Source: an uncultured candidate division Zixibacteria bacterium
GTDB taxonomy: Bacteria; Zixibacteria; MSB-5A5; UBA10806; 4484-95
DNA length: 64,000 nt
Direction: 5' to 3'
Assembly: GCA_963668625.2 (NCBI GenBank)
Contig: CAXXKA010000004.1
Span: 224,001-288,000, forward strand
Each line of letters begins with the position of its first letter. The stretch's first letter is position 1. Positions 717 through 53,366 of the stretch are shown piece after piece. A model generated the notes under the pieces. That model saw only the letters and a program-made list of their open reading frames with translations, was not told the origin of the DNA and ran no database searches. The position numbers and the translations under genes are program-made.

Positions 717-779
717 CTCAGAGCTATGGCTTCTGAGGATTTTCCTGAAGTAAAGAACTGATAAACTGAAGTTACGCGG

Positions 780-938
780 AGCCGGAGGCAACACAGTCCC
801 GGGGGCTCCCTTATCTGTCTGTTTACGGGACACCCTCGGGAAGTCAGCCTTCCACGAGGACTATACCTTACAAACGGGCTACATGCCTTCTCGCCTCGCT
901 TTTTGTTGAGAGCCACAGTTCATTAACCTACCCCTGGC
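780..938 (-). ncRNA. Candidate structured ncRNA (rod-like with central bubble, 6S-like architecture)
   Basis: GC-rich intergenic island. Minus-strand nested pairings GCCAGGGGUA/UGCCUCCGGC, GGCUCUC/GGGAGCC and CCUCGUGGAAG/CUUCCCGAGG; G-U wobbles favour the minus strand. Confidence 0.4.
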
Positions 939-1176
939 CAAAGAAGAAATAATTACTTAAATATACTGATTTATCAATCAGATTCATCGTGATATCGATT
1001 TCCAGCTCAAGTTAAGCCAATCGTAGTCATCATGAACCGGAGTACTCCACGATTATAAAAAATCGACTAAACATAATAATAAGTGTTGACATTTATATAA
1101 TTATATTTTATCAAAGTAACGTTATTATTATGCAATTAATAATTTCAGGATATTTAACCAAAAAGAGAAGGGAAAC

Positions 1177-1596
1177 ATGATGCTGTCAGTTAGTGAGGAT
1201 ATCGCTGTTAAAGCGATGGTAAGCATAGCTGCCGCAGATGGAAAGCACCAGTGTAGCATAAACAAGATCTCGGATAGGGAGAAATTGTCGCGCGAATACC
1301 TGGCTAAAATCCTGAAGCGGTTAGTGCAGAAAGGACTGCTCATTTCAAGCCTTGGTTTGCATGGCGGTTATAAACTGGCAAAGCCGGCTTCTGAAATTTC
1401 CATCCTGGATGTCATCGAGGCAATAGATGGCAGCTACGGGTACATCGTCGATTACAGCTCGGATGAAATAGCTGATGCCAAGGGCGGCGCGGCTTATGAT
1501 TTCTGGAAAGACGTACATAAGATGACCAGGGATATGATGGCCAACCAGACCCTGGACAAATTCGATTTCGTCAAGTATTATCCTGATTTTCAATAG
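1177..1596 (+). CDS. Rrf2 family transcriptional regulator (no C-terminal Fe-S cysteines)
   Basis: 'REYLAKILKRL..GLL.S..G..GGYKLAKPASEISILDVIEAIDG'. Confidence 0.9.
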   Translation: MMLSVSEDIAVKAMVSIAAADGKHQCSINKISDREKLSREYLAKILKRLVQKGLLISSLGLHGGYKLAKPASEISILDVIEAIDGSYGYIVDYSSDEIADAKGGAAYDFWKDVHKMTRDMMANQTLDKFDFVKYYPDFQ

Positions 1597-1621
1597 ATAA
1601 TATTTAAATAGATTTGAAAGA

Positions 1622-1649
1622 GCGGGAGGTGAATAGCTTCCCGTTTTTT
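1622..1649 (+). terminator. Probable intrinsic terminator
   Basis: CGGGAGG...CTTCCCG hairpin followed by a T-tract after the Rrf2 stop. Confidence 0.6.
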
Positions 1650-1768
1650 AATGTTACAAGTGGCGCAGAAGCTGCAGTTCCTGAGGCCTCTGGTGGCACA
1701 ATGGCTAAATAGTAGCGCGTGAGACGCAGTCGGGTCAGGCGACCTAACTACACGGGGATAAAGATGTA

Positions 1769-2530
1769 TTACCCTTTGCTTTCGATCGGCGCCTTATCTG
1801 CTCTTTCGAGATTTAGCGATACAGTATTGCCCTCCGATTCTCCTAACATCTGGATGATACGCAGATACAATAGATTCGGGTTGCTCTCGGCCATCTTGGC
1901 GGCGTTGGCCAGGCTACGCATAGCTGCAGTCTCGCCACGGGCTCTCTCTAAGGCGGCGTTGGCCTCCTTGCGGGCTTTTACCGATTGAGCGAACATCTTC
2001 TTGAAATCACCCGGTATAACAATATCCTTTATATCAGCCGATATCAGCTTGATCCCGAACTGCGAAACCTCCTCAGCGATCTGGGCGGTGAGTTTCTCGC
2101 CAAACAAGCTGCGCTCGGTCAGGATGTTGTCTATCTCGGTGGTGGAGATTACGCCTCTCAATGCAATTTGAATGCTCGAATATAATTCATCCTCATACGA
2201 TTGGGTGTTGTGCAAAGCCATGACCGGATCATTAATTTGATATTTTACGACCATGCTGACTTTCACGCCAATACCATCGGAGCTGGGTAACTCCTGCGGT
2301 TTAACATTCAGCACTCTTCTACGGATATCCATTTTCTTGAAAGTCTTATTTTTCCCTATTATCTTATGCTTTCCCGGTCCCAGTGTTTTTATATGTTCTC
2401 CGTTTTTATAAACGATGCCTTTCTCATATTCAAATAACACAACTGTCTTGAAATAGATTTTATATATACCATAACCAAATATAAACATAATCACTATCAT
2501 CAGGAAATTTAAAAAGCCATCATGAAACAT
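1769..2530 (-). CDS. SPFH/band-7 (slipin/stomatin-like) protein
   Basis: N-terminal TM, 'GIKLISADIKDIVIP', 'ALERARGETAAMRSLANAAKM..SNPNLLYLR'; start at ATG 2530 with AAGGAG RBS. Confidence 0.9.
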   Translation of the reverse strand: MFHDGFLNFLMIVIMFIFGYGIYKIYFKTVVLFEYEKGIVYKNGEHIKTLGPGKHKIIGKNKTFKKMDIRRRVLNVKPQELPSSDGIGVKVSMVVKYQINDPVMALHNTQSYEDELYSSIQIALRGVISTTEIDNILTERSLFGEKLTAQIAEEVSQFGIKLISADIKDIVIPGDFKKMFAQSVKARKEANAALERARGETAAMRSLANAAKMAESNPNLLYLRIIQMLGESEGNTVSLNLERADKAPIESKG

Positions 2531-2551
2531 ATTATTCTCCTTTTTAATTTC

Positions 2552-2747
2552 TCCAATTCCGGGGAATATCAAATCTCCGCGGAGGTCTTAACCTGCATGG
2601 CATCGACTCAATCTATTATCCCCCGGAGTTGGAATTTGGCAACGGGAATTGAACCCGGTCTTTATAGGACCCACCTGAGGAAGAAGACTACACGCAGGAC
2701 ATTCCCGGTTGACTACCGGGATAGCTGCTGATTCTTCCATGTAACCA
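2552..2747 (-). ncRNA. Candidate tRNA-like structured leader/ncRNA upstream of the band-7 gene
   Basis: Minus strand: T-arm-like CGGG-UUCAAUU-CCCG, hairpin GGUC-CUAUAAA-GACC, long arm GGAAGAA..UUCUUCC, then a 17-bp stem hairpin at 2552-2633. Confidence 0.5.
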
Positions 2748-2856
2748 TTTAATATTTCGGCACTATTATGAATAATATTATATAATGTAAGTATCAATGA
2801 AAATTGCCGCAGATATTGCCTTATACTCGGATTTCTCCGGCAGGAGTCTCAACCCG

Positions 2857-3564
2857 TTAATTGCCCGTGTAATTAATACGCTCGAAAAACGAATCGCGAT
2901 AGCTGTCGCCTATCGGGATTTTCTGATTATTAATTATTATGAAATATTTCTCTATAACCTCAATCTTACCGAGAGCGACGACGTATGATCTGTGTATCCT
3001 GATAAAATCATCTGTTGGCAGGTTCTCCAGAAGCTCACTCATACTCAAACGAGATAAATACTTCCTGGAACTCGTAACGAAATCAATATAGTGACCATCT
3101 TTTTTCATATACAACAGTTCATTTATATCAACCTGATGGTATTTCGTACCGCTTTTGATGAAAATATGTGATGATTTATTCGAGTCATTGTTAATCGAAT
3201 TGACTGATTCGATTCTCTGCTTTGCTTTGGCCACGGCATTAGAAAATCTGTCGAAAGGAATAGGCTTAAGCAGATAATCAACCGCGTCATATTCATAACT
3301 TTCAACCGCGTATCTCGAATACGCCGTACAGAAGATAGTCAATATTCCTCTGGTTCTCATCAACTCCGAAACCTGTAAACCATCCAGGCCGGGCATATCA
3401 ATATCGAGAAACATGAGATCGATATCATTTTTCGTCAGATACTTTATCGCCTCTATAGGATCAAGGTAACTTCCTGCCAGCTTCAACTCGGATGATCTCT
3501 GAATGTAATCGGTTAAAATATCAATAGCCCCGATCTCATCATCTATAACGATACAACTAATCAT
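2857..3564 (-). CDS. LytTR family response regulator
   Basis: REC domain (DD, FLDIDMP, YLLKP) plus LytTR 'FIRIHRSYVV'. Confidence 0.95.
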   Translation of the reverse strand: MISCIVIDDEIGAIDILTDYIQRSSELKLAGSYLDPIEAIKYLTKNDIDLMFLDIDMPGLDGLQVSELMRTRGILTIFCTAYSRYAVESYEYDAVDYLLKPIPFDRFSNAVAKAKQRIESVNSINNDSNKSSHIFIKSGTKYHQVDINELLYMKKDGHYIDFVTSSRKYLSRLSMSELLENLPTDDFIRIHRSYVVALGKIEVIEKYFIIINNQKIPIGDSYRDSFFERINYTGN

Positions 3565-3567
3565 AAT

Positions 3568-4659
3568 TTATTCTTTCAGGTTCAAAATTAATTCCACCGA
3601 AAATCTATCCTCCGTTTCATCAATAACTAAATCATGACATTTGGGAAATATCAACTCCAATCGTTTTCGGGGGTTCGATAAACCGATACCCGAATGTTTC
3701 GAAAAAGCCCTTTGTGATTTATGCTTGGAGTTTTGTATCTTAAATACGAGATTGCCATTTTGCCGATTAATTTCTATATGAATAAAACTTTTAATATTAG
3801 GCCGAAGACCATGTTTTACGGCATTTTCAATAAACGGCACGAATAACAACGGCGCAATCTGTACATCACTGAAATCTCCGTTTCTGATAAATCGCAAATC
3901 GATATAATCATTCTGAGGAAATTTCAGACTCGCCAGTTCAAGGTAATTTTCAATATGCTCCAGCTCCCTTTCCAGTTCGATTTTCTGCGTGTTGCTGTCA
4001 TATATCATGTATCTCATAATTGATGAGAGCTTTAAAATCGCCTGGCCGGTTTCCTCATCCCTGTTTCTGATAGAGATAGCATAGATATTATTTAATGAGT
4101 TGAAGAAAAAATGCGGATTAATTTGCGACCTGAGGAAGTTTATATCCGCTGTCATCTTCTCGTTAATTAATTTCTGCTGGTTTCTTGTCTTTTTAATCCA
4201 ATCACGGCAGATACCATAAATAATGCCTGAAATACATGCTCCAACGAAAACCGGCAGCTCATATAAGCTGATCTTATGCTGGTTTGGATAAGCAAGCATT
4301 TTATCCGAAACTATATCGGGGACCGTCGGTAAATTGAATAATCTCAGCACCTGATAATCCAGTCCTCTTTTAATGACTAATACGGAAGTAATGGACAACA
4401 ATATCAGCAAGATAAAATGCATATACTTCCTGTTTACGAGAAACTCAGGAACGAGATAGAATGCCGAGAACAGATACAAAACCAGAGCTAAACAGCAATA
4501 TATAAGGCCGGCTATATAAATACTGTTATCGATGCTGTTATATTCGCCCATAAAAACCGGCAAATCGGGATTATACAGGATACTTGCGGTTAAGCCCAGA
4601 AAAATTACAGCTATAATTGATATCTCAATTACTGATCCTTTAAATACTCTACTCATCAC
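3568..4659 (-). CDS. LytS/YehU-type sensor histidine kinase
   Basis: TM N-terminus, 'LRSQINPHFFFNSLNNI', 'FIENAVKHG', 'GIGLSN'. Confidence 0.95.
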   Translation of the reverse strand: MMSRVFKGSVIEISIIAVIFLGLTASILYNPDLPVFMGEYNSIDNSIYIAGLIYCCLALVLYLFSAFYLVPEFLVNRKYMHFILLILLSITSVLVIKRGLDYQVLRLFNLPTVPDIVSDKMLAYPNQHKISLYELPVFVGACISGIIYGICRDWIKKTRNQQKLINEKMTADINFLRSQINPHFFFNSLNNIYAISIRNRDEETGQAILKLSSIMRYMIYDSNTQKIELERELEHIENYLELASLKFPQNDYIDLRFIRNGDFSDVQIAPLLFVPFIENAVKHGLRPNIKSFIHIEINRQNGNLVFKIQNSKHKSQRAFSKHSGIGLSNPRKRLELIFPKCHDLVIDETEDRFSVELILNLKE

Positions 4660-32493: not shown

Positions 32494-34653
32494 ATGAACA
32501 AACTCGCAACCTACATACTTATAATTATTTGCTTATCGGTATCAGTAGTATCAGCACAGATAATGAGTTTTAACAGCGCCAGTGTTTTTACCGGGTCAAT
32601 CAACGATATAGAGATTCGCGACAATTACGCTTATTGTCTGGGGACCTCGGCGTTCGAGGTGTTCGATATCTCGACTCCCGGGGAGTTCAAACTCGTTGCC
32701 GGGTGGCCGATAGCCGGCGGCACTAATAGATTAGTTCTGAAAGATAACCTGGCTTTTATAACCACATTCGGAGCGGGACTGGTTGTATTGGATATTTCGA
32801 CACTCCCGATAACCTGTGAATTTGCCTGCCTGGACATCGAGGATGATGTAAGTGATATTTACTTCGATGGTGATACACTGTATCTGGCCGGTCATGATGG
32901 CAACCTGCATTTTATCGACATCAGCAATCTACAGGATCCGGTTTTGATAAGCAGTTTCGAAATGCCCAATTCGCTCGAATCGATCACCGGCTATGCCGGC
33001 TACCTGTATGTCGCTACCCACGCCAATGGCGTCTATGTAATCGATATCTCGGACTGTGAAAATCCTGAAATTATCGATACACTGGATGAACAGTGGGAGT
33101 TAAAGGATGCAACGATACATAACGATCATTTGTATATCAACTCGTGGTTATACGATGATATGGTAATTTACGGCAAAATCAACATCTACGATATCGAGCA
33201 GCCTGGCAGCCCGAACCTTATTTCCACGATCGAGAGGGACAGCGAATTCAGTGATATCTATTTCGAAAACGACATACTATATACGGCCAATGATTACTAT
33301 GGATTAGTCGCCTACGATATCAGCCAACCGACAAACCCGGTCTCGATTATAAACCAGGCTTTCGAACTTGACTTCGACTACGTATCCGCTACCAGTGTTT
33401 GTGCCCTGGAAGGAACCTCGGTGATTTGCCTCGGCAGTTATCTGGTCAGAGCCGATATTTCTAATCCCGATAATACTTTCATACTGGATAAGTATTCGAT
33501 TCCCAGAGAATCATTTAGTGTAGAATGCGAAGGGAATCTGGCTTATATCGGTTTGCAGCTCGGATTCCAGGTTTTGGATTACACCAATCCCGATTTCCCG
33601 GTGATGCGAGGCGGAATCAATGACCATCTGGTAGTCAATGGCATCAAGGATATGTGCCATAATGGTGGTTACGTGTATTTAGCGTCAGCCTCATGTGGTA
33701 GAATCAGCATTATAGATGTTAGCAATCCCGATTCGGTTTATTGTGCAGGTTATTACTCCGATGGTCTTTTTTCGGTAAGGGCTGTTGATGTTCGCGATAC
33801 GCTTTTATTCGCTATCATGACCACCGGTTTACCGTTTCGAATCATTAATGTCGCCGACCCCGCGAACCCGGTAGTACTGGGCGGCTGCGAAACCAACAAT
33901 GGCATTGTTTATGATATGGCGCTTGATGGGAATTATGTTTATGCATTATGCCATACGGGCGTATCTATCATAAACATCGAAGACCTGGCTAATCCGGAGC
34001 TTATAGCATCGTACAATTCACAGAGCGGGTTTGTACTAAAAACGATTGCCGTTAGAGAAAACTACGCTTTCATGGCCTCCGACACGGGTTATTTCGAGAT
34101 AGTAAACACGGAAAATCCAAATGATTTCCGTCGCGAAAGCTATTGCGAAATTCCGGAGAATGCCTCCGATATCTCTATCGTGAACAACTTCGCTCTAATC
34201 GCCACTGATGGAGTTGCAGTGGTGGATATCGGCGACCTTACCGGACCATCCCTGACCAATCAATGGGATTCACCGGGAAGATCCCATAACCTGGATTTTC
34301 ATGGGAATTATATTTTCTTAGCCGATTGCTTTTCTACGATAATAATCGAATATACGACTGCGGCGATCGGGGATGAATCGGCGCTGCCGGATCAAATCGC
34401 GCTATCGCAAAACTACCCCAATCCGTTCAATGCCCGAACAAGTATCAGTTTCACACTGTCCGAAAAATCAAAAGTAAAACTTGATATATATGACATACTT
34501 GGCCGCAAACTTCAAACTCTACATAATGGCATCCAGAATGCCGGGGAGCACACATTGAACTGGAATGCCGAAAACCTCTCCTCAGGTATTTATTTCTATA
34601 AATTAACTACCGGAGAATTCGAACAGACCAGGAAAATGATTCTTCTAAAATAG
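32494..34653 (+). CDS. Secreted LVIVD-repeat protein with CTD
   Basis: Same architecture; start 32494 or 32482. Confidence 0.9.
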   Translation: MNKLATYILIIICLSVSVVSAQIMSFNSASVFTGSINDIEIRDNYAYCLGTSAFEVFDISTPGEFKLVAGWPIAGGTNRLVLKDNLAFITTFGAGLVVLDISTLPITCEFACLDIEDDVSDIYFDGDTLYLAGHDGNLHFIDISNLQDPVLISSFEMPNSLESITGYAGYLYVATHANGVYVIDISDCENPEIIDTLDEQWELKDATIHNDHLYINSWLYDDMVIYGKINIYDIEQPGSPNLISTIERDSEFSDIYFENDILYTANDYYGLVAYDISQPTNPVSIINQAFELDFDYVSATSVCALEGTSVICLGSYLVRADISNPDNTFILDKYSIPRESFSVECEGNLAYIGLQLGFQVLDYTNPDFPVMRGGINDHLVVNGIKDMCHNGGYVYLASASCGRISIIDVSNPDSVYCAGYYSDGLFSVRAVDVRDTLLFAIMTTGLPFRIINVADPANPVVLGGCETNNGIVYDMALDGNYVYALCHTGVSIINIEDLANPELIASYNSQSGFVLKTIAVRENYAFMASDTGYFEIVNTENPNDFRRESYCEIPENASDISIVNNFALIATDGVAVVDIGDLTGPSLTNQWDSPGRSHNLDFHGNYIFLADCFSTIIIEYTTAAIGDESALPDQIALSQNYPNPFNARTSISFTLSEKSKVKLDIYDILGRKLQTLHNGIQNAGEHTLNWNAENLSSGIYFYKLTTGEFEQTRKMILLK

Positions 34654-34727
34654 TTTTTTAAAAAATTAACTGTTAATTTTTATGCTTAAATGTTAGCAGT
34701 TTCTATAACCGCCAAATGGGAGATCAT

Positions 34728-35157
34728 ATGTCCAGAGTTAAACTGGTCATATTCCTGGTATTTTTTTTCGTATCCCCCGAATGTTTCAAGGATATAGTCT
34801 ACTCGAAAAACACAATCGATCGGGCAAATTATCATTCGACAATCGTGAGAAACAACAACCATTCGAGTATTGATATGAAAAACATGTATCGATCGAAGAA
34901 ATCCATAGGATATGCTTTTCCTGATCCGTTTAATACTTCCTTAACGATCAGCTTCAGTTTCCTTCAACGGTCAAGTGCAAAACTTGAGATTCATGATATA
35001 CTGGGAAGTAAATTAAAAACCATATTCGAGGGATAACAATCGGCAGGTAAGTATTCGGTAATTTACGGTATATTGACGTCTAGCCTCGGGAAAATACATA
35101 CACAAACTTGCATCAGGAGAGTATAGCTATATTCGAAAGCTTACTCTTATCAAATAG
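34728..35157 (+). pseudogene. Degenerate short CTD-bearing gene
   Basis: 'AFPDPFNTS...HDILGSKLKTIFEG*QSAGKY'; after a frameshift 'KLASGEYSYIRKLTLIK*'. Confidence 0.65.
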
Positions 35158-35241
35158 TAGCTCAGCTTGAGCTATATTGAAATTATAAAAATCAGCTCAG
35201 GCTTCGGTTAGATTAAATCACTCAAATCAGGAGGTTATAAA

Positions 35242-37380
35242 ATGAAAAAAACACTGATAACCGGCGGTTTTATTTTATGTGTTTTGATAGCCGCCACTTT
35301 AACATCTACGGCCCGGCAATTGGAGTACGTGAACTCTATTTACTGGACCGATATCAATGATCTAAAACTGCGAGGTGATTACGCCTACTGCTGTTTCGGT
35401 TCGGGATTGGTCATTTATGATATGACAACCCTGTCTTTTCCATTAATAAGCAGTAGAATTTTTATTCAGGGAAGCAATAAACATATCGAATTACATGAGA
35501 ATTACGCTTACATGTTCGGCAAAGATGATATGCTGCGTGTCATTGATATCACCTCACCAATCAATCCTCGGATAGTTGGCGAATTACCACTTAACTGCGA
35601 GGTGTATAATATCCGTATTAGAGGTAACTACATTTTCGCGGCCGCCGGTGAACTCGGTCTCGCAATCATCGATATTTCCGATCCCGAGCAACCGGAAGTT
35701 TTAACCTTATATGATACCGACGGGATCACGGGAGCAGTCGATATTCAGGATGATTACGTTTTTATAGCGGAAAAACAAACTCAGCCATCCATGCCATCAT
35801 TCCAGGTGCTGGATATCACCGATATCCTGAATCCTTACGCGATAGGCGCAATCACGGATCAAATCATATCGGCATGCGATCTGATAGTTGAAGGAGATAT
35901 CGCCTACCTCGCCGACCAAACAGCCGGTTTTACCACGATTAAATTAACGAATTTATCACAGCCTGAAGTATTAGCTCAGATATCAAGCTCTTCCTCACCT
36001 CATAATCTTCATTTTAATGATCCCTACGTTTTCATGGATAAAGATAACGAATGGCTGCAGGTATACGATGTCACGGATCCCGCATCGCCCCAGTTAGCCG
36101 GTGATTTTCTGCCCGAGAAACCAATTATGGACTTCGATTTGACCGGCTCGCAGCTTTTCACGGCCGGAGCGTTCGAGGGCATCTCCATACTGGACATTTA
36201 CGATGTCGACTATATATTTCAGCTAACGGAGATCGACAGAAGAGGAGCGATAACCTCCTCATTTATGGTGGATGATGTATTATATGTCGGCGAATCTCAA
36301 CAGGGATTGATGGTTCACGATCTCAGCGATCAAGGCAACCCGAATCAAATCGGATTCTCTTTTACCCCCTACCAGCACTCATTTACGGAGCTGAATGAAA
36401 ATAGCATTTTCCTTCTGCAGGATGATCAGATAGGTGAAATCTACCTGCCGGATCCCACCACGCCGCTTGATCCGATGTATTACTATTTTCAACAAAATTA
36501 CAGTGATGCCTGTATTAATCTTCCTTATCTATTCCTCACCAAACCAGAGGGTGGCCTGGATATCTACCTTCGCCACAATTTCGTGGCTCTGCAGTACCTC
36601 AGAAGTTACGAGTGGACATCCCAAACCGGAAATGTTGAAATCGAGAACGGGCGTGCTTATATCGCTCAGTATCCTAATATCTGCATTTTCGATATATCGG
36701 ATCCAACCGATTCAGTCCTTCTCGGTTCCTATGAACCGGCAAATCAAGTGCAGAAACTGTGGGTGAAAGATAGTTATGTCTATTCCTCGGGGCATGATGC
36801 TACCAGTAATCAAGTATCGATATACGATTGCGCCGATCCGGAAAATCCTGTCTTTGTCGATGATATCGCTTTCGAGGGATCAGTGCTCGATATAACATTT
36901 CATGAGAACCTGGCGATTTTCGCGGTTTTGGAGGCTGGGATAATTATTTACGATTGCGCTAATCCCGAAAATCCGATACCGGTTGATCAATACCGCACAC
37001 CTGGTATCATTAACGAAATCGCCATTTTCAATGACTATTTGTACTTAGCCGATAACAGCTCCCTGGTTATTCTCCGTTTCAGCCCGACAGGTATCGAGAA
37101 TATCGATAACTTACCGGAGGAATACCGGCTATCGCAAAACTACCCAAATCCGTTTAATGCCGCCACCACGATAAGCTATAGTCTACCGGAACAGTCGAAA
37201 ATATGTATTGAGGTTTTCGATATACTTGGCAGAAAAGTGCAAACGCTATTCGAGGGCGAACAGCCGGCAGGTATTCATTCGCTTACATGGAATGCAGATA
37301 GTTTCTCCTCCGGTATCTATTTCTATAAGTTATCTGCCGCAGATATTATACGTACCGAGAAGATGTTGTTAATTAAGTAG
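35242..37380 (+). CDS. Secreted LVIVD-repeat protein with CTD
   Basis: Paralog of 30003..32153 (shared 'YINSINW/YVNSIYW' start of the mature protein); AGGAGG RBS. Confidence 0.9.
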   Translation: MKKTLITGGFILCVLIAATLTSTARQLEYVNSIYWTDINDLKLRGDYAYCCFGSGLVIYDMTTLSFPLISSRIFIQGSNKHIELHENYAYMFGKDDMLRVIDITSPINPRIVGELPLNCEVYNIRIRGNYIFAAAGELGLAIIDISDPEQPEVLTLYDTDGITGAVDIQDDYVFIAEKQTQPSMPSFQVLDITDILNPYAIGAITDQIISACDLIVEGDIAYLADQTAGFTTIKLTNLSQPEVLAQISSSSSPHNLHFNDPYVFMDKDNEWLQVYDVTDPASPQLAGDFLPEKPIMDFDLTGSQLFTAGAFEGISILDIYDVDYIFQLTEIDRRGAITSSFMVDDVLYVGESQQGLMVHDLSDQGNPNQIGFSFTPYQHSFTELNENSIFLLQDDQIGEIYLPDPTTPLDPMYYYFQQNYSDACINLPYLFLTKPEGGLDIYLRHNFVALQYLRSYEWTSQTGNVEIENGRAYIAQYPNICIFDISDPTDSVLLGSYEPANQVQKLWVKDSYVYSSGHDATSNQVSIYDCADPENPVFVDDIAFEGSVLDITFHENLAIFAVLEAGIIIYDCANPENPIPVDQYRTPGIINEIAIFNDYLYLADNSSLVILRFSPTGIENIDNLPEEYRLSQNYPNPFNAATTISYSLPEQSKICIEVFDILGRKVQTLFEGEQPAGIHSLTWNADSFSSGIYFYKLSAADIIRTEKMLLIK

Positions 37381-37390
37381 ATAAGTCAGA

Positions 37391-37499
37391 AAGTTCGCTA
37401 AATCCATACTTAACTATATAACATTTATGGATTTAGCTGAACTTTTTCTTGTCAAAAACAGTTTATTTCTTATAATAAGGTCAGAAATAACAACTGTTT
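37391..37499 (+). promoter_or_regulatory. Putative promoter flanked by two long inverted repeats
   Basis: TTGTCA (37449)-N16-TATAAT (37471); IRs GCTAAATCCATA/TATGGATTTAGC and AAACAGTTTATTTCT/AGAAATAACAACTGTTT. Confidence 0.5.
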
Positions 37500-37513
37500 A
37501 AACTGGAGCAAAA

Positions 37514-38503
37514 ATGCGTAAACTACTAATCCCGATTTTACTCATTGTGACCGCTATGGTATCCCCTGCCATGGCTTATCGAAGTCTTCAGGAGGTTTTC
37601 GAAAACGCCATGCCGGGATATGGTTATGATCGCTATATAGAGCTCGACCCCGAGATCGAATACGAGGGCGATCTACAAATCAACGCTAATGAAAGTATCT
37701 GCATTAAAGGCAACGGTGCGCTCGTATATGGCCGTCCTTATATGATGTCTGTTTATGTGGTGTTCGCTCAACTGGATATTTCGGATTGCGTGTTAGTCGA
37801 CGGTGGTTTCGGGATATATTACGGTTTGGACTCTTACGGCACTATCAGCAACAATACTATCATTAATGCCAGCGAGCAGGGAATAGCTACGGTCAATTTC
37901 GATGAGGATCGAGGACTGGTAATTTATAACAATATCATTACCGGCTCTAACTATGGCTTTTTATGCGTCGAGGAGCATCACCCCTCGTACCTGGGCTATA
38001 ACACTGTTTGGAACACAGGCACGTATCGCTACGCCGAACAATGCCTCGACTGAGGTGGCACTATCTTGCCAATCGACCCTGGTCAGGGTGATCAAGATGA
38101 AAATCCCATGTTTGTAGATATTGAGAATTTCGATTTCAGACTTCAGGCCGGTTCCCCCTGCATAGGTACGGGCCGGGATGGAGGCGATAGGGGCGCGCTG
38201 CAGTTCGCTACCGGTATAGATGATATCATCACACTCCCTTCGGCGCTTGCGCTCGATAGCAACTACCCTAACCCGTTTAACGCCGCCACCACTATCAGCT
38301 ACGATCTGCCGGAGCAATCCGAGGTCAGCCTGGTGATATACGACTTACTGGGCCGCGAGGTGCAGACGCTGGTGAACGATACCGAACCGGCAGGTAAACA
38401 CACTATCACCTGGCATGCGGATAAAGTCACCTCGGGTATATATTTCTACAGGCTAACAACCGGTAAGGATGTGCTTACCCAACGCATGACATTGATAAAA
38501 TAA
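37514..38503 (+). CDS. Probable secreted selenoprotein: signal peptide + parallel beta-helix + CxxU + CTD (329 aa, Sec at TGA 38051-38053)
   Basis: ORFs 37514..38053 and 38066..38503 are in frame across a single TGA in 'YAEQC-L-D-U-GGTILP'; SECIS-like hairpin directly downstream. Confidence 0.8.
38063..38098 (+). promoter_or_regulatory. Candidate bacterial SECIS element
   Basis: ATCTTG/CAAGAT lower stem, ATC/GAT, bulged G, ACCCT-GGTC-AGGGT apical stem-loop; loop begins 27 nt after UGA and starts with G. Confidence 0.7.
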
Positions 38504-38526
38504 GAATAATCCATTAGCTGATTATC

Positions 38527-38557
38527 AAGGCGCGTAAATTATCTTACGCGCTTTTTT
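38527..38557 (+). terminator. Intrinsic terminator
   Basis: GCGCGTAA..TTACGCGC plus T6. Confidence 0.85.
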
Positions 38558-38650
38558 ATTTTGTGACTGGCAGATATGCTCAGGCTGTCTCAAAAGGTAG
38601 ATCGACGCCGTGGTTGGGGTACGATCCCCATGCTCCGACTCGTATGCCTG

Positions 38651-38906
38651 GTTCCCTGGTTTCCAGACGCTTCTTGGGAACCTTCTAAAGTCATGTAAAA
38701 TCCGCATTCTGCCGGCAAACAAGCCACGTTGCGAAGTAGCGGGGTTGTTGAAAAAATCTATTTCACGCGTCGCTGGGCGGACGAAGTCCTTTGTTCATCC
38801 TTTCCCGGCGACATCCCGCATGTAACAGGTGTCAGGAAAAGATTCCTGACACCGCAACTAAGTCATGTAAAATCCGCATTCTGCCGGCAAACAAACCACG
38901 TTGCGA
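38651..38906 (+). repeat. Second repeat family / REP mosaic
   Basis: 47-bp core repeated at 38688-38734 and 38860-38906 (1 mismatch); palindrome GGTGTCAGGAA..TTCCTGACACC; 90-bp homolog at 53540-53629. Confidence 0.8.
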
Positions 38907-39083
38907 TATTATTTATATAATTGTGCACGGGCACACGGGGACGCCTGCTGCTCTCAAATACAGAAAATCAATCTCGGAGCACAGGTCAAGACTACTCAAG
39001 ACCTGATAACCAAGGCCTGATTTACCCTCTGTTTTCACAACAATCCTATTGACATCTCCGCCCCACACAATTAACATATTCTC

Positions 39084-39845
39084 ATGCTAGATTTTACCCA
39101 GACAATGTATGATAATCTCTGCCGGGCAATCAACGACTCGGGCTATCGCACGGCGATAATGGGTGACTATTTCAAAAGTGATAGCTCCGATATTCCCCGC
39201 ATGTTCCTCCGTCATGATGTTGACCGTGATCCGATGCTTGCGCTCGAGATGGCAAAAATCGAACGAGATCATAAACAGGTATCCACCTATTTCTTCCGGG
39301 TGGTCGAAAATGTTTTCAAGCCGGACATTATCGAGAAAATCTCTGCAATGGGGCATGAGATCGGCTATCATTACGAATGTCTCGATAAGACCGGCGGTGA
39401 TTACTCGAATGCCTATCAAACCGCTATCGGGGATTTGAAGAAACTGCGCGAGGTTGCCCCGATTGTCTCCATGGCCATGCATGGCAATCCGCTGACCAAA
39501 TGGGATAACCGCGATCTATGGGGCAAATACGATTACAAAGACCTGGGTATCGAAGTGGCTGCTTATTTGAATATCGACTATAAAAAAATCCGTTATTTTT
39601 CGGATACCGGACGCACCTGGGAGGAAAACCGTGGCAATATCTACGATTTCGTTGGCAATCAGCCCTCCCATGCTCTGAAAACTACGCCTGATTTGATCGA
39701 ATATATCAGCGAACATAAACAGGATACCTGCATACTCATCCACCCCAACCGATGGACCGACCAGACATTCAAATGGCTGTACAACTGGGCATTCGACACG
39801 GCCGCCAACACCGCTAAAGCGATTATCAAAACAATCAGAAAGTAG
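39084..39845 (+). CDS. Polysaccharide deacetylase-like (NodB/CE4-type fold) protein
   Basis: 'LRHDVD', 'STYFFR', 'GHEIGYHYE', 'YFSDTGRTW', 'LIHPNRW'. Confidence 0.75.
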   Translation: MLDFTQTMYDNLCRAINDSGYRTAIMGDYFKSDSSDIPRMFLRHDVDRDPMLALEMAKIERDHKQVSTYFFRVVENVFKPDIIEKISAMGHEIGYHYECLDKTGGDYSNAYQTAIGDLKKLREVAPIVSMAMHGNPLTKWDNRDLWGKYDYKDLGIEVAAYLNIDYKKIRYFSDTGRTWEENRGNIYDFVGNQPSHALKTTPDLIEYISEHKQDTCILIHPNRWTDQTFKWLYNWAFDTAANTAKAIIKTIRK

Positions 39846-49790: not shown

Positions 49791-52700
49791 TTATCTATTT
49801 TTGTATTCAGTCTGTCTGCTATTTGATATCTCCTCAATCTCCTGGCAATTAGGCCAATTAAACGGCATTTCCCCTGGTAAATCGGATGATTCAGGCCAGT
49901 TAGTCGGATGGAACGGGCAGTACGTCAGGTCGTTCAGGTTGCGGAAATAGTTAACAAGGTAGGTGACATCCGAACCGATTACGGCGCAATCACCGTTAAC
50001 ATCCGCCGGCCCGAAAAAGCTGTCGAGGAAACACGGTTCGGCTTTATTTCTGAAATAATTCACCAGGTAGGATACATCCGCTCCAATAACCAGAGGCGGC
50101 CAATCACCGACCCACATATTAATATCACCGGGAAAATAGTTAGTGTGAATAAAGGCGTTGTAAAACGAAACCGCCCCGATATCTATTCGAGTGCCGTCAG
50201 CATCAATGTATAGAGTATCGTTGGGGTGCCCCATATCGATACAGGGTGATTTCAGCGAATCGGTATATGGAAATCCCACCCACATCAAGCTGAAATCACC
50301 TGCTGATGGTTCGATAAACATCGGGTCATCCGATATATTATTAGCTCCACCCGATGTATAACCATTCTGAATATCGCAATAGTCGACAAAGGGAGCAACC
50401 ATGGAAGAATCGACATGTATCTGGCTGCTATAATTGGCGTCGTTATTCCAAATGATGCTATTTAGCAACAATGGGCTGCAGTTGTTCAAATATACCCCAC
50501 CGCCGGTATTGGCTTGATTTGCATAAAACGTATTGCTTAGCAACGCCATACTGTCGGTGCAACCTTCGATATAAACACCGCCGCCATAATTAAATGCCTC
50601 GTTAAGCCAGAAAATATTTCTTTCTATACGGGCATCGGAACCATTTTCGATACTGACCGCGCCGCCGTTCGATTCGCTAAGATTGTTCGTGAATAAGTTG
50701 AAAATAACCTGCGGAGAACTTCCGTCTGCCAGGACTGCTCCCGGGGTATTTTCGCCATAGTTATTCTCGAATATATTGTAGCTGATCACCACTCCATCCC
50801 CGGCATTATCCAGCCGAATCGGAGTATCATTGGAGTATTCTATTAATGATAAATGCACCAAGCTGCTTTCCGCATTATTGAAACATATACTCCCCCAGCC
50901 CCTACTCGTATCGAATGAGGTATATCGCACCCGACTAAAAGTCGTATCATCATCCATGATAACCCATTTGCCTTCGCTCAGCAACAAACCGGTGTTTTCC
51001 ACGATAATATCATACATACCCATGAAATTAAGTGTCACACCCTGCTCGATAATCAGCGTATCGCCATCGCTAACGATAATATCACCGGTAACCTTAAATG
51101 TATCCGGTGGAAATAGCTCTGTTTTGCCTGTAATATCTCCGAAAATCCTTTGCATCCCCTGTGGAAAATGCCGGGCTCCTATATCCGTGCGGGTGGTGTC
51201 CGGATCTTTGAAAATAGTAGTATCCGGATTGCCGCGTTCGATACATGGCGAGCCCAGCCCGAGATTGAAATCGCCGTTATCACGATCGACAAAGAGCGGA
51301 TCATCACTAATACATGAATCGGCATCCTGAATATCGTTTAAGGAGCCCTGGCTCAGGTCACAGTAATCGTAGGTCACGTTATTACCGGCGAAATACAGGT
51401 GACGGGATTGGTAATCGATAGCCAGATTTTCCCAGAATATACAGTTCTGAATATCAAAATCAGAAACCGCATTCGCGTATATCGCTCCGCCCGAATTCTC
51501 CGATTTATTTCGATAAAAAGTATTATTAGTAAATAGCGTTCTTTCTATTGGCGCCAGCGAGTCACAGTAAATCGCGCCGCCATAGCTATTGGAATGATTA
51601 AGCCAGAACACATTTCGCTTCAAATTCAAATCGGTGATTGCCGATAGCGATATCGCTCCGCCTTCCGCACTGGCTGAATCAGCTTTGAACGTATTACTGA
51701 AAAGATCAAGAGAACCGCCGATCGCGTTAACGGCCGCGCCTCGAACCGCCTCGTTATCGACGAATACGGAACTACTGCAAATTAAAGAACCATTATAGGA
51801 GGCAACAGCGCCATAGTTATTTTTTTCAAAATAACATGTATCTAAAACTCCCGTGGAATTAGTCAGTGTTATCGCAGCCGAGGAGTCGGCGCCTAAAAAT
51901 CGCGTAAATGTAAAATAACTGGGATCGGAATTCACGAAGTTAATCCCCTTATAGCCGATACCAGGATCATTCCGTCCGAAAGTAATTATAGACTCAGCAG
52001 TGCCGGGAGCGTTGATATACGATCCGGAGCAAACGACAATATCATATAACGATATTACCCCGGCATCGTAACAATGTTTGAATAGCACCTCAACACCCGG
52101 CTCGATATATAAACCATCACCGCTTGATACGCTACAAGGCGACATCACGTAATAAGGACTGTATAATTCTTGAAGAGTATCCAGTTGGATCCTACCGACC
52201 AGGTTGAAAATATGATGATACGGATAGGCGCCCATATCGGCGTAACTACTATCGGCATCCTTGGGCAGTAGAGGATCACCGGTATTTATGCAGGGCGATT
52301 TCCCCTCGACATCATCCTGTATTCCACTCCATGAAAGACTCAAATCTATTACATGAACTCTTGCAGTATCATTAAATATTGGATACTCATTAATACAGGA
52401 ATAATCCAGATAGCCAAGATTTTCATTAACATCGGAGTATTTAACAATCGGATTATCATTTCCCGGCTCGACGTATATTTCAGGGTTGCTTAAACTTGCC
52501 ATATCATCCCACAAAATACAGCTATTTATGGTTGGAAGAGCTTCTGTCCGGGTAGATATCGCTCCGCCAAAACGAGCGCTATTTTGAAAAAATGTGCAGT
52601 TTTCGATAGCTATAGTCGTAGTATCCGATAAGTCTAATCCTCCACCTTTTTCATTTGCTACATTAAAATCGAAAACGTTATTTTTGAAAATGCCTTCTTG

Positions 52701-53366
52701 AACATGTTGTAGTAGAGCTCCCCCTCCGTTCGTACCAATGGCTTGATTGTTGTAAAAATAGTTGCCGGTTATATTGATAATACCATCCTTGCAAAACAAT
52801 CCACCTGCTGCAAAAGCGATATTACCGTTAAAATTGCAGCCTCTGACAGTTATATCAGAGTTTTGGCTGTAAATTCCTCCGCCAGATTCTATAAATCCAC
52901 AGTTATTTTCCTCTAAAATACAATTAATTAGAGTTAGATCGGTAGAATCTATATATACCGCCTGATTATTCACTTTTCGGATTCTCGCTTTATATAAAAT
53001 AGATGAGCTATCCGAATGATCAAAGAGCAGCCCGCTCCAGGTAGTTTCTTGTGACGGTGACTCGAACGATACTTCGTTTGTCGCTGTATCACCTGATGAA
53101 CTTACATTAACTATTAATGTCGCATTCCGATTGATAGTAAACCGATAGTCACCGTGAAATATAACTCTAATGGTATCGGAATCGGCATAGATTCTCAAAG
53201 TACTATCTTCAGGAATATTAATATTACCGGTTATATTATATTCGGAATATCGAGAATCCCACATGCCGTACACATCACCGACAATGGTAGTATCAGCCGC
53301 CATCGCATTGATATTAAATATCAATACGAATACAAATATAATCCTATAAAACATGCGCATAAACAC
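49791..53366 (-). CDS. Secreted right-handed beta-helix (GGAI/FxxN repeat) protein with C-terminal dockerin-like domain
   Basis: Repeated 'GGAI', 'F..N.A'; three 'SPCI..G.P...D.D...D.GA' modules; 'PGDINMWVGDWPP'. Confidence 0.88.
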   Translation of the reverse strand: MFMRMFYRIIFVFVLIFNINAMAADTTIVGDVYGMWDSRYSEYNITGNINIPEDSTLRIYADSDTIRVIFHGDYRFTINRNATLIVNVSSSGDTATNEVSFESPSQETTWSGLLFDHSDSSSILYKARIRKVNNQAVYIDSTDLTLINCILEENNCGFIESGGGIYSQNSDITVRGCNFNGNIAFAAGGLFCKDGIINITGNYFYNNQAIGTNGGGALLQHVQEGIFKNNVFDFNVANEKGGGLDLSDTTTIAIENCTFFQNSARFGGAISTRTEALPTINSCILWDDMASLSNPEIYVEPGNDNPIVKYSDVNENLGYLDYSCINEYPIFNDTARVHVIDLSLSWSGIQDDVEGKSPCINTGDPLLPKDADSSYADMGAYPYHHIFNLVGRIQLDTLQELYSPYYVMSPCSVSSGDGLYIEPGVEVLFKHCYDAGVISLYDIVVCSGSYINAPGTAESIITFGRNDPGIGYKGINFVNSDPSYFTFTRFLGADSSAAITLTNSTGVLDTCYFEKNNYGAVASYNGSLICSSSVFVDNEAVRGAAVNAIGGSLDLFSNTFKADSASAEGGAISLSAITDLNLKRNVFWLNHSNSYGGAIYCDSLAPIERTLFTNNTFYRNKSENSGGAIYANAVSDFDIQNCIFWENLAIDYQSRHLYFAGNNVTYDYCDLSQGSLNDIQDADSCISDDPLFVDRDNGDFNLGLGSPCIERGNPDTTIFKDPDTTRTDIGARHFPQGMQRIFGDITGKTELFPPDTFKVTGDIIVSDGDTLIIEQGVTLNFMGMYDIIVENTGLLLSEGKWVIMDDDTTFSRVRYTSFDTSRGWGSICFNNAESSLVHLSLIEYSNDTPIRLDNAGDGVVISYNIFENNYGENTPGAVLADGSSPQVIFNLFTNNLSESNGGAVSIENGSDARIERNIFWLNEAFNYGGGVYIEGCTDSMALLSNTFYANQANTGGGVYLNNCSPLLLNSIIWNNDANYSSQIHVDSSMVAPFVDYCDIQNGYTSGGANNISDDPMFIEPSAGDFSLMWVGFPYTDSLKSPCIDMGHPNDTLYIDADGTRIDIGAVSFYNAFIHTNYFPGDINMWVGDWPPLVIGADVSYLVNYFRNKAEPCFLDSFFGPADVNGDCAVIGSDVTYLVNYFRNLNDLTYCPFHPTNWPESSDLPGEMPFNWPNCQEIEEISNSRQTEYKNR

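Follow-up and report, generated by a model that had tools for sequence, protein, structure and literature searches.

A predicted exported beta-helix selenoprotein family, annotated as two genes, in candidate division Zixibacteria and related bacteria

Does an in-frame TGA in the genome of an uncultured candidate division Zixibacteria bacterium end one gene and precede another, or is it read as an amino acid within a single longer gene? The question arises from a 64,000-nucleotide stretch of contig CAXXKA010000004.1 (assembly GCA_963668625.2, positions 224,001 to 288,000 of the forward strand), referred to here as the window, in which translation table 11 splits the locus at 37514-38503 into an open reading frame (ORF) at 37514..38053 (179 aa) and a second ORF at 38066..38503 (145 aa, TTG start). 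Here we examined by computation the unity of the gene, the conservation of the UGA, the pairing of selenocysteine (Sec, U) with cysteine, a hairpin resembling a selenocysteine insertion sequence (SECIS), the Sec machinery of the genome, the fold of the product and its sorting signals. We report that 37514-38503 is one gene, not two, and we consider it highly probable that this gene encodes an exported selenoprotein in which UGA 38051 is read as Sec.

The frame opened by the ATG at 37514 meets its first stop codon at the TGA at 38051-38053, in the context TGC-CTC-GAC-TGA (C177-L-D-U180). Past this codon the frame stays open until the TAA at 38501-38503, and the product of reading through has 329 residues plus U180. 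A first-pass annotation of the locus had placed a CLDU motif at this TGA in a frame open to 38503, and both the letters and the translation bear this out. A single coding sequence on the forward strand (37514..38503, TAA stop) is indicated by the open frame, by the colinearity of 32/32 homologs across the TGA and by a continuous AlphaFold2 (AF2) model, described below.

A six-frame homolog search of the window's genome and 40 relatives returned 20 full-length homologs in 12 of the 41 genomes, each with exactly one TGA and all in a single alignment column. A scan of named genome records added 20 loci, of which 7 duplicated earlier copies, 1 ran off a contig end and 12 were new; the TGA stood at the column in 19/19 of the named-record loci that reach the site, including all 12 new copies. 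The total is 32 distinct copies in 23 genomes, with the TGA at the column in 32/32 and pairwise identities of 25-93% (median 37%). Both flanks of the TGA (Sec codon, 38051..38053) are conserved, and a G follows the U in all 32 copies. The usual motif is C-x-x-U-G-G: Cys lies no more than three residues upstream of U in 31/32 copies, as C-x-x-U in 28, C-G-U in 2 and C-U in 1, with no nearby Cys in the remaining copy. The partner in the window is Cys177 (codon TGC, 38042..38044). Several genomes carry two to four copies, with the TGA in every one. The titles of the records that contain a homolog are mostly Candidatus Zixiibacteriota, with two Coatesbacteria, one Marinimicrobia and one "FCB group", and some are Ignavibacteria or uncultured. 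In two copies (G009_b, L040, and G004, L023) TGA has both roles in one gene, serving as the conserved Sec codon and, after the sorting domain, as the real stop.

The first-pass annotation had looked to homologs for a conserved TGA, or an aligned Cys at this position, with conservation on both sides, and all of these were found. In six of the eleven one-piece proteins that span the site (P0030, P0038, P0048, P0053, P0069 and P0093), the column holds Cys, which occurs as C-G-C, as C-S-C or as a lone Cys. No TGA-free close paralog spanning the site was found in the window's genome. Public protein databases hold the family mainly in truncated form. A word-based protein search gave only 3 matches (180-182 aa), and an exhaustive profile search of 1.84 billion representatives gave 16 clusters of 176-247 aa that matched profile positions 1-178 only. 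All 19 of these database fragments, several of which are the same proteins as copies already among the 32, stop at C-x-x, C-G or C, directly before the Sec position. The family is systematically mis-annotated as two genes, and the 19 fragments are its shortened public entries.

The hairpin at 38063..38098, which had been described with its bulged G in the first-pass annotation and is confirmed here, consists of a 6-bp lower stem, a 3-nt internal loop, 3 bp, the bulged G, 5 bp (ACCCU/AGGGU) and a GGUC apical loop at 38081-38084, 27 nt past the UGA. The criteria for bacterial SECIS (bSECIS) elements in the Fig. 2 legend of a 2026 review (PMC13188914) are a loop of 3-9 nt, an upper stem of 4-16 bp, a G in the first two loop positions, a UGA-to-loop distance of 16-37 nt and a minimum free energy (MFE) of -7.5 kcal/mol or lower. 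Scored in this way, as had been proposed, the window element lies within all four constraints (loop GGUC, 5 bp, 27 nt, constrained energy -13.8 kcal/mol). The constraints were passed by 28/32 copies of the family, compared with 386/1,500 random in-frame positions of the window's genome.

Since the stem-forming P-G-x-G codons of most copies tend to self-pair, we also compared each hairpin with synonymous recodings of the same residues. For the 20 close copies the best G-loop hairpin had a mean of -8.3 kcal/mol, versus -2.4 kcal/mol for the recodings (500 each), and the synonymous tail fraction was below 0.05 in 11/20 and no higher than 0.148 in 20/20. As a control, 12 TGA-free end modules of the same genome, a set that includes the second Sec copy mis-registered by one codon, showed no excess (-2.2 versus -1.4 kcal/mol, median tail fraction 0.81). 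These modules were picked by homology; an earlier regular expression that gave 6 matches, some of them irrelevant, was dropped as too strict. The close-clade hairpins are far stronger than synonymous recoding allows, and the excess is specific to the TGA-bearing copies. In G007 and G003 the hairpin sits on A-R-F-G codons, different amino acids from those of most copies. In a more distant clade it is found 14-19 nt after the UGA, over W-x-S-F-x-P, and its arms change together between copies (GUGGUAC/GUACCAU, GUGGAA/UUCCAC, GUGGCA/UGCCAC and GGGAGA/UCUCCC). The element seems to have arisen from self-complementary P-G-x-G codons in a beta-helix end module that was there before it.

The machinery for Sec insertion is present in the genome. 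The selD, selA and selB genes cluster together on contig C1 (SelA scores 385 bits; the adjacent 627-aa frame has a SelB wing domain at 60.5 bits), and ARAGORN identified tRNA-Sec(tca) on contig C2, so that selA, selB, selC and selD, whose presence the first-pass annotation left to be confirmed, are all accounted for. The selD of this cluster (G000:C1:154251-155174, L004) has its own in-frame TGA, in the context S-C-A-G-U-A-A-K. SelA is present in 17/17 carrier genomes tested. Genome-wide recoding of TGA is excluded because the codon otherwise acts as a normal terminator: of 1,834 frames of at least 300 codons, 415 end with it, and a median of 7 codons separates it from the next stop. Separately, we observed a second SelD-type gene (G000:C8:1138152-1139072, L003), without a TGA and inside a 739-aa open frame, which suggests a fusion protein.

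Several points weigh against the selenoprotein reading, which is a computational prediction. The presence of SelA is non-discriminating within the class because it was found in all 41 relatives. The bSECIS constraints are loose, being passed by 26% of random positions, and four copies of the family (L051, L053, L058 and L062) fail them. Rfam gave no match in 37900-38300, and whole-window MFE, a blunt measure, gave a mean z of only -0.91. In the distant clade the synonymous test is weak and has little power (1/12 below 0.05, median 0.18), since the residues W, Y/K/Q, V/L and P leave the stem little freedom to vary. Covariation of the hairpin, which the first-pass annotation had named as support, is seen in the paired changes of the distant-clade arms but is only marginal on a fixed codon alignment: paired cells made up 71.4%, versus 66.5% in shuffled alignments (reached by 48 of 500 shuffles), and the covariation score was 0.182 versus 0.124 (reached by 45 of 500). 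The fixed-column signal is marginal because the register of the hairpin shifts by a base between copies. Finally, Trp, Arg or Gly at the codon in homologs had been put forward as evidence against Sec, and Trp does occupy the column in 5/11 one-piece homologs, against Cys in the other six and TGA in all 32 copies. The Trp-bearing relatives form a distant W-G-G-W-T-G subfamily of multidomain proteins of ~700 aa and cannot account for the 32 conserved TGAs. We regard the copies as a genuine, well-supported and apparently new selenoprotein family that follows the canonical bacterial recoding route and is novel in its fold and predicted destination.

What kind of protein is made by reading through the UGA? 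Residues 22-232 (37577..38209) form a right-handed parallel beta-helix domain, including its end module, as judged from Pfam, AF2 and structural matches. Pfam Beta_helix (PF13229) matched residues 87-169 with 27.0 bits (cut-off 25.9); Pfam NosD matched the same residues with 25.2 bits (cut-off 23.6), a marginal match that reflects the fold. The AF2 model, from a 20-sequence alignment, shows stacked short strands (mean predicted local distance difference test score, pLDDT, 93.2; predicted template modeling score, pTM, 0.87), and the chain is continuous across the junction of the two ORFs, with pLDDT of 97, 95 and 93 in successive 10-residue blocks around residue 180. An exhaustive structural search gave a flat list of right-handed beta-helix enzymes with Z of 10-14.5, led by 6kfn_A (Z 14.5, root-mean-square deviation 2.9, 163 residues) and with NosD (7o0y_A, Z 11.8) at rank 26, and Foldseek found no match in the PDB at E <= 0.001 (best E 2.3e-3). 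The likeness detected to the beta-helix polysaccharide lyases and hydrolases (PL1, PL6, PL9, GH28 and similar) is at the level of the fold. Because the list is flat, the fold is clear yet uninformative on function. No NCBIfam model matches the protein except that of the sorting domain, and Pfam likewise has no family entry for it; neither database gave a thioredoxin-like match, and the AF2 model is all beta-helix rather than a thioredoxin fold.

The Cys-Sec motif lies in a loop of its own. In the AF2 model residues 171-177 form a strand, residues 178-180 a helical turn and residues 183-186 a further strand. Redox CxxC motifs follow a strand and enter a short helical turn, and the model places the window motif likewise. 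The family has an extra loop, Y-A-E-x-C-x-x-U-G-G, after the last beta-helix rung. Generic end modules (...Y-N-D-V-W-x-N-...-N-Y-x-G-...-P-G-x-G-x-I-S-x-D-P-x-F...) have only a short Cys-free linker there, and the Sec loop is therefore a family-specific insertion.

The prediction of export is based on signals at both ends of the protein. Residues 1-21 (37514..37576) read by eye as a signal peptide, with a basic N-terminus, a hydrophobic core and an A-x-A site (A-M-A) before Y-R-S-L-Q. This layout is common to all 20 close homologs, in which an invariant S-L-Q follows. At the other end, 38264..38500 encodes a type A C-terminal sorting domain of the type IX secretion system (T9SS), with 41.7 bits to PF18962 (cut-off 27, residues 251-324) and 48.1 bits to TIGR04183 (cut-off 23), and the genome encodes PorU (681.8 bits, cut-off 420). 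The protein thus has what is expected of T9SS type A cargo, namely a signal peptide (by eye), a sorting domain and T9SS machinery in the genome, and is predicted to be secreted. The extracellular selenol chemistry envisaged in the first-pass annotation is an inference that goes beyond this predicted export. Eleven of the 12 new copies (233-341 codons, one cut by a contig end) are without the sorting-domain motif, the shortest having a signal peptide; short copies of this kind would be expected to be periplasmic. The window's genome has at least 150 sorting-domain matches (150 scored of 230 candidates, nearly all to the sorting domain), a very large repertoire of T9SS cargo. One other frame with an in-frame TGA, at C6:404243 (frame 746-3079 of G000:C6:401500-405500, L063), was considered and rejected: it encodes a BNR/sialidase-like T9SS protein, not a selenoprotein. 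Its sorting domain ends early at the TGA (...G-I-Y-F-Y-R-I-D-stop), and the sequence past the TGA is unlike a sorting domain.

We propose the following course of events. The hairpin at 38063-38098, within the coding sequence, would recruit SelB, which would bring tRNA-Sec to UGA 38051. The pre-protein would then be exported via the general secretory translocon, with cleavage of the signal peptide after A-M-A and folding in the periplasm, and the T9SS would carry it to the cell surface or the medium and remove the sorting domain. This two-step route is expected because the protein consists of a signal peptide, a beta-helix of ~210 residues and a sorting domain. The working site would be the pair of Cys177 and Sec180, where the chain leaves the last rung; it would form a reversible selenylsulfide and could react by exchange with the S-S or S-Se bonds of substrates outside the cell, for example polysulfide, elemental sulfur or disulfides. 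Provided that the protein is a selenoprotein, redox exchange of this kind is a plausible function, which we favor only tentatively. Two points count against the functional part of the proposal. It follows from motif logic alone, and the gene neighbors, considered as a possible clue, were set aside, since the synteny of the short copies involves housekeeping genes and the neighbors in the window are uninformative.

An alternative is that the Cys-Sec site clamps soft metals between S and Se, acting as a surface site for soft metals or metalloids (Hg, Cu, Cd, As, selenium) in capture or detoxification rather than in redox chemistry. The distance from the partner Cys to U is not fixed (28 copies have C-x-x-U, 2 have C-G-U and 1 has C-U) and the Cys forms have C-G-C or C-S-C, which suits chelation as well as catalysis. 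The CU/CxU motifs of SAO selenoproteins have been argued to bind metal in a preprint (10.1101/2022.07.06.499078), and according to the 2026 review, metals or molecules derived from them take part in ~70% of the interactions predicted for Sec. On the other side, no metal-resistance or metal-transport genes lie nearby, and the NosD match is marginal and reflects the fold. Given a selenoprotein, we regard metal or metalloid binding as possible but rather unlikely, and leave the remainder of the probability to other roles. We would also suggest, as a speculation that may well prove wrong, that this is the first T9SS-delivered selenoprotein family, with a surface Cys-Sec pair on a beta-helix that attacks S-S bonds of polysulfide or elemental sulfur, or captures soft metals, in anoxic sediments.

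These alternatives concern function and presuppose Sec. Of the explanations that dispense with it, the one that survives best is read-through with a near-cognate Trp, Cys or Arg, or through a recoding signal other than a SECIS, giving a full-length but selenium-free protein. It can draw on the 4/32 copies without a canonical bSECIS and on the existence of Trp-bearing relatives. We nevertheless consider it very unlikely: the genome has a complete Sec apparatus, which its own selD employs, SelA accompanies the gene in every carrier tested, and TGA terminates normally elsewhere in the genome. Moreover, the near-universal nearby Cys (31/32) and the replacement of U by Cys in one-piece homologs are the usual signature of a selenoprotein, and the G-loop hairpins occur at the canonical distance and are stronger than synonymous recodings in TGA-bearing copies alone.

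It is still less likely, to the point of being hardly credible, that the TGA is a true stop followed by a second protein starting at TTG 38066, with the GAGG at the stop as its ribosome-binding site (RBS). Both ORFs exist in table 11, GAGGTG lies 9-14 nt upstream of TTG 38066, and public gene callers made the same split (16 clusters and 3 fragments, ~180 aa). However, an in-frame start 3-6 codons past the UGA is found in only 4/32 copies, and 17/32 have none within 25 codons. The caveat in the first-pass annotation that GAGGTG could serve as an RBS for this TTG accordingly lost its force, and we discount the GAGG "RBS" because the UGA and the conserved Gly codon spell it. The frame is continuous, with G-G after the UGA in 32/32 copies; the beta-helix end module is encoded 3' of the TGA, and AF2 models the junction with confidence; and the second half has a sorting domain that needs export, yet is without a signal peptide. 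A scan of the 37300-38700 region found no promoter-like or terminator-like site between the two halves, which also speaks against separate genes. The possibility of a broken gene, by nonsense mutation (TGG or TGC becoming TGA, for example) or assembly error, is negligible even though TGA is one step from TGG and TGC and one-piece relatives have Trp or Cys at the column, since the same TGA occurs in 32/32 copies from separate assemblies of 23 genomes at a median identity of 37% with both flanks conserved, is present in all copies of the genomes that have two to four, and belongs to homologs too divergent to be copies of one contaminating sequence.

The scan of 37300-38700 also found a promoter-like site at 37449..37476 on the forward strand (TTGTCA, 16 nt, TATAAT), which matches the consensus at 11/12 positions, is the sole forward-strand site 5' of the ATG and is a consensus match only. 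A terminator-like hairpin of 11 pairs followed by a T run, at 38527..38554 on the forward strand, is the sole such site in the region and agrees with the one terminator that had been placed after 38503. Upstream of 37514 are three tandem paralogous LVIVD-repeat beta-propeller proteins (737, 723 and 712 aa; 29940-37380), each with a T9SS sorting domain, and downstream are a 253-aa protein without a Pfam match, an MFS transporter, a CheW-receiver protein and a histidine kinase. LVIVD/T9SS neighbors occur at only ~6 of 31 other selenoprotein loci, in genomes where such proteins abound. The short form of the family (233-250 aa, no sorting-domain motif; L051, L053, L054, L056, L057 and L060, with the match at about 3001-3700 in each) has a conserved neighborhood, with an amino-acid permease-Usp fusion and an MscS-like protein upstream and an F-type ATP synthase operon (a, c, b, delta) downstream. 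Two mobile or repeated elements were also noted near the window gene. A Mutator-family transposase (Pfam Transposase_mut, E 7e-74) lies at 28529-29800, just upstream of the LVIVD array. In the 580-nt intergenic stretch downstream of the gene there is a 47-nt direct repeat (38688-38734 and 38860-38906; 98% identical, 172 nt apart), which has 90 blastn matches genome-wide on both strands, mostly 44-46 nt at 93-96% identity. An Rfam scan of 38500-39100 gave nothing meaningful for this repeat, which looks like a dispersed short repeat element.

If the selenoprotein reading is true, a beta-helix selenoprotein with a secretion sorting signal extends the use of selenium to a new fold and to the cell surface, and the family suggests selenium chemistry outside the cell in sediment bacteria. 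As it occurs in multiple copies within an uncultured and little-studied phylum and is conserved in several lineages of the FCB group, it would be a concrete target for studying the role of selenium outside the cytoplasm in anoxic sediments. It would also show that the codons of a protein motif can double as a recoding signal. No beta-helix, NosD-like or T9SS-sorted selenoprotein was found in the literature searched, including deep-Sep (PMC12013277) and BSepDB (PMC13326102). Nor was the present family found in the 2026 review, whose main-text family table carries accessions (PMC13188914), or in the preprint of Haft and Gwadz (10.1101/2022.07.06.499078), supplementary tables and the groundwater survey of metagenome-assembled genomes (Deng et al.) aside.

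How, then, does the family compare with known systems? Its hairpin invites comparison with the SECIS of E. coli fdhF. We take both to have a G-G-U-C apical loop and, a few pairs further down the stem, a bulged base; the stem sequences of the fdhF element are unrelated to those of the window hairpin, and Rfam found no match for the window element. In fold, the nearest comparison is with the generic T9SS-sorted beta-helix proteins (P-G-x-G ... D-P-x-F ... S-P-C-I), which give thousands of matches and are found in the window itself at 49791-53366. They share the fold, the end module and often the sorting domain, and the repeated modules let the family profile match them with E values as low as 1e-89. 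They differ in the short Cys-free linker between N-Y and P-G-x-G, and no excess of hairpins was seen over their P-G-x-G codons. Another periplasmic beta-helix is NosD of the NosDFY copper/sulfur maturation system, whose Pfam model scores just above the cut-off; to our knowledge no Sec is known in NosD, and no NosF- or NosY-like ABC genes lie beside any selenoprotein copy examined (nosZ was not searched for).

In chemistry, the family is most readily set beside the bacterial CxxU/UxxC redox selenoproteins (AhpD-like, CMD-like, DsbA-like and Prx/Trx-like; PMC13188914), with which it has in common the C-x-x-U motif, the Cys homologs and a SECIS within the coding sequence 3' of the UGA. That review lists more than 110 families of prokaryotic selenoproteins, most of them thioredoxin-like, whereas the window protein is a right-handed parallel beta-helix with a signal peptide and a T9SS sorting domain. 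Selenoproteins of the envelope have precedents, which include a TonB-dependent receptor (FCYXU), an MtrB/PioB-type barrel, BtuF, Sao binding proteins and the periplasmic polysulfide reductase MccSep. An outer-membrane beta-barrel with C-x-x-U resembles the window protein in its envelope location and in being a comparative prediction, and is unlike it in being neither a soluble beta-helix nor T9SS cargo. MccSep/ExtKL, a periplasmic multiheme cytochrome c selenoprotein of Geobacter described in a preprint (10.1101/2025.11.18.688581), is heme-dependent, has another fold and is without a T9SS signal; its Sec and its activity are experimental, whereas the window protein is known from its sequence. 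The two are alike in export, in the pairing of Sec with Cys and in having been annotated as two genes, and in MccSep/ExtKL, according to that preprint, Sec and Cys act together on sulfur species outside the cytoplasm.

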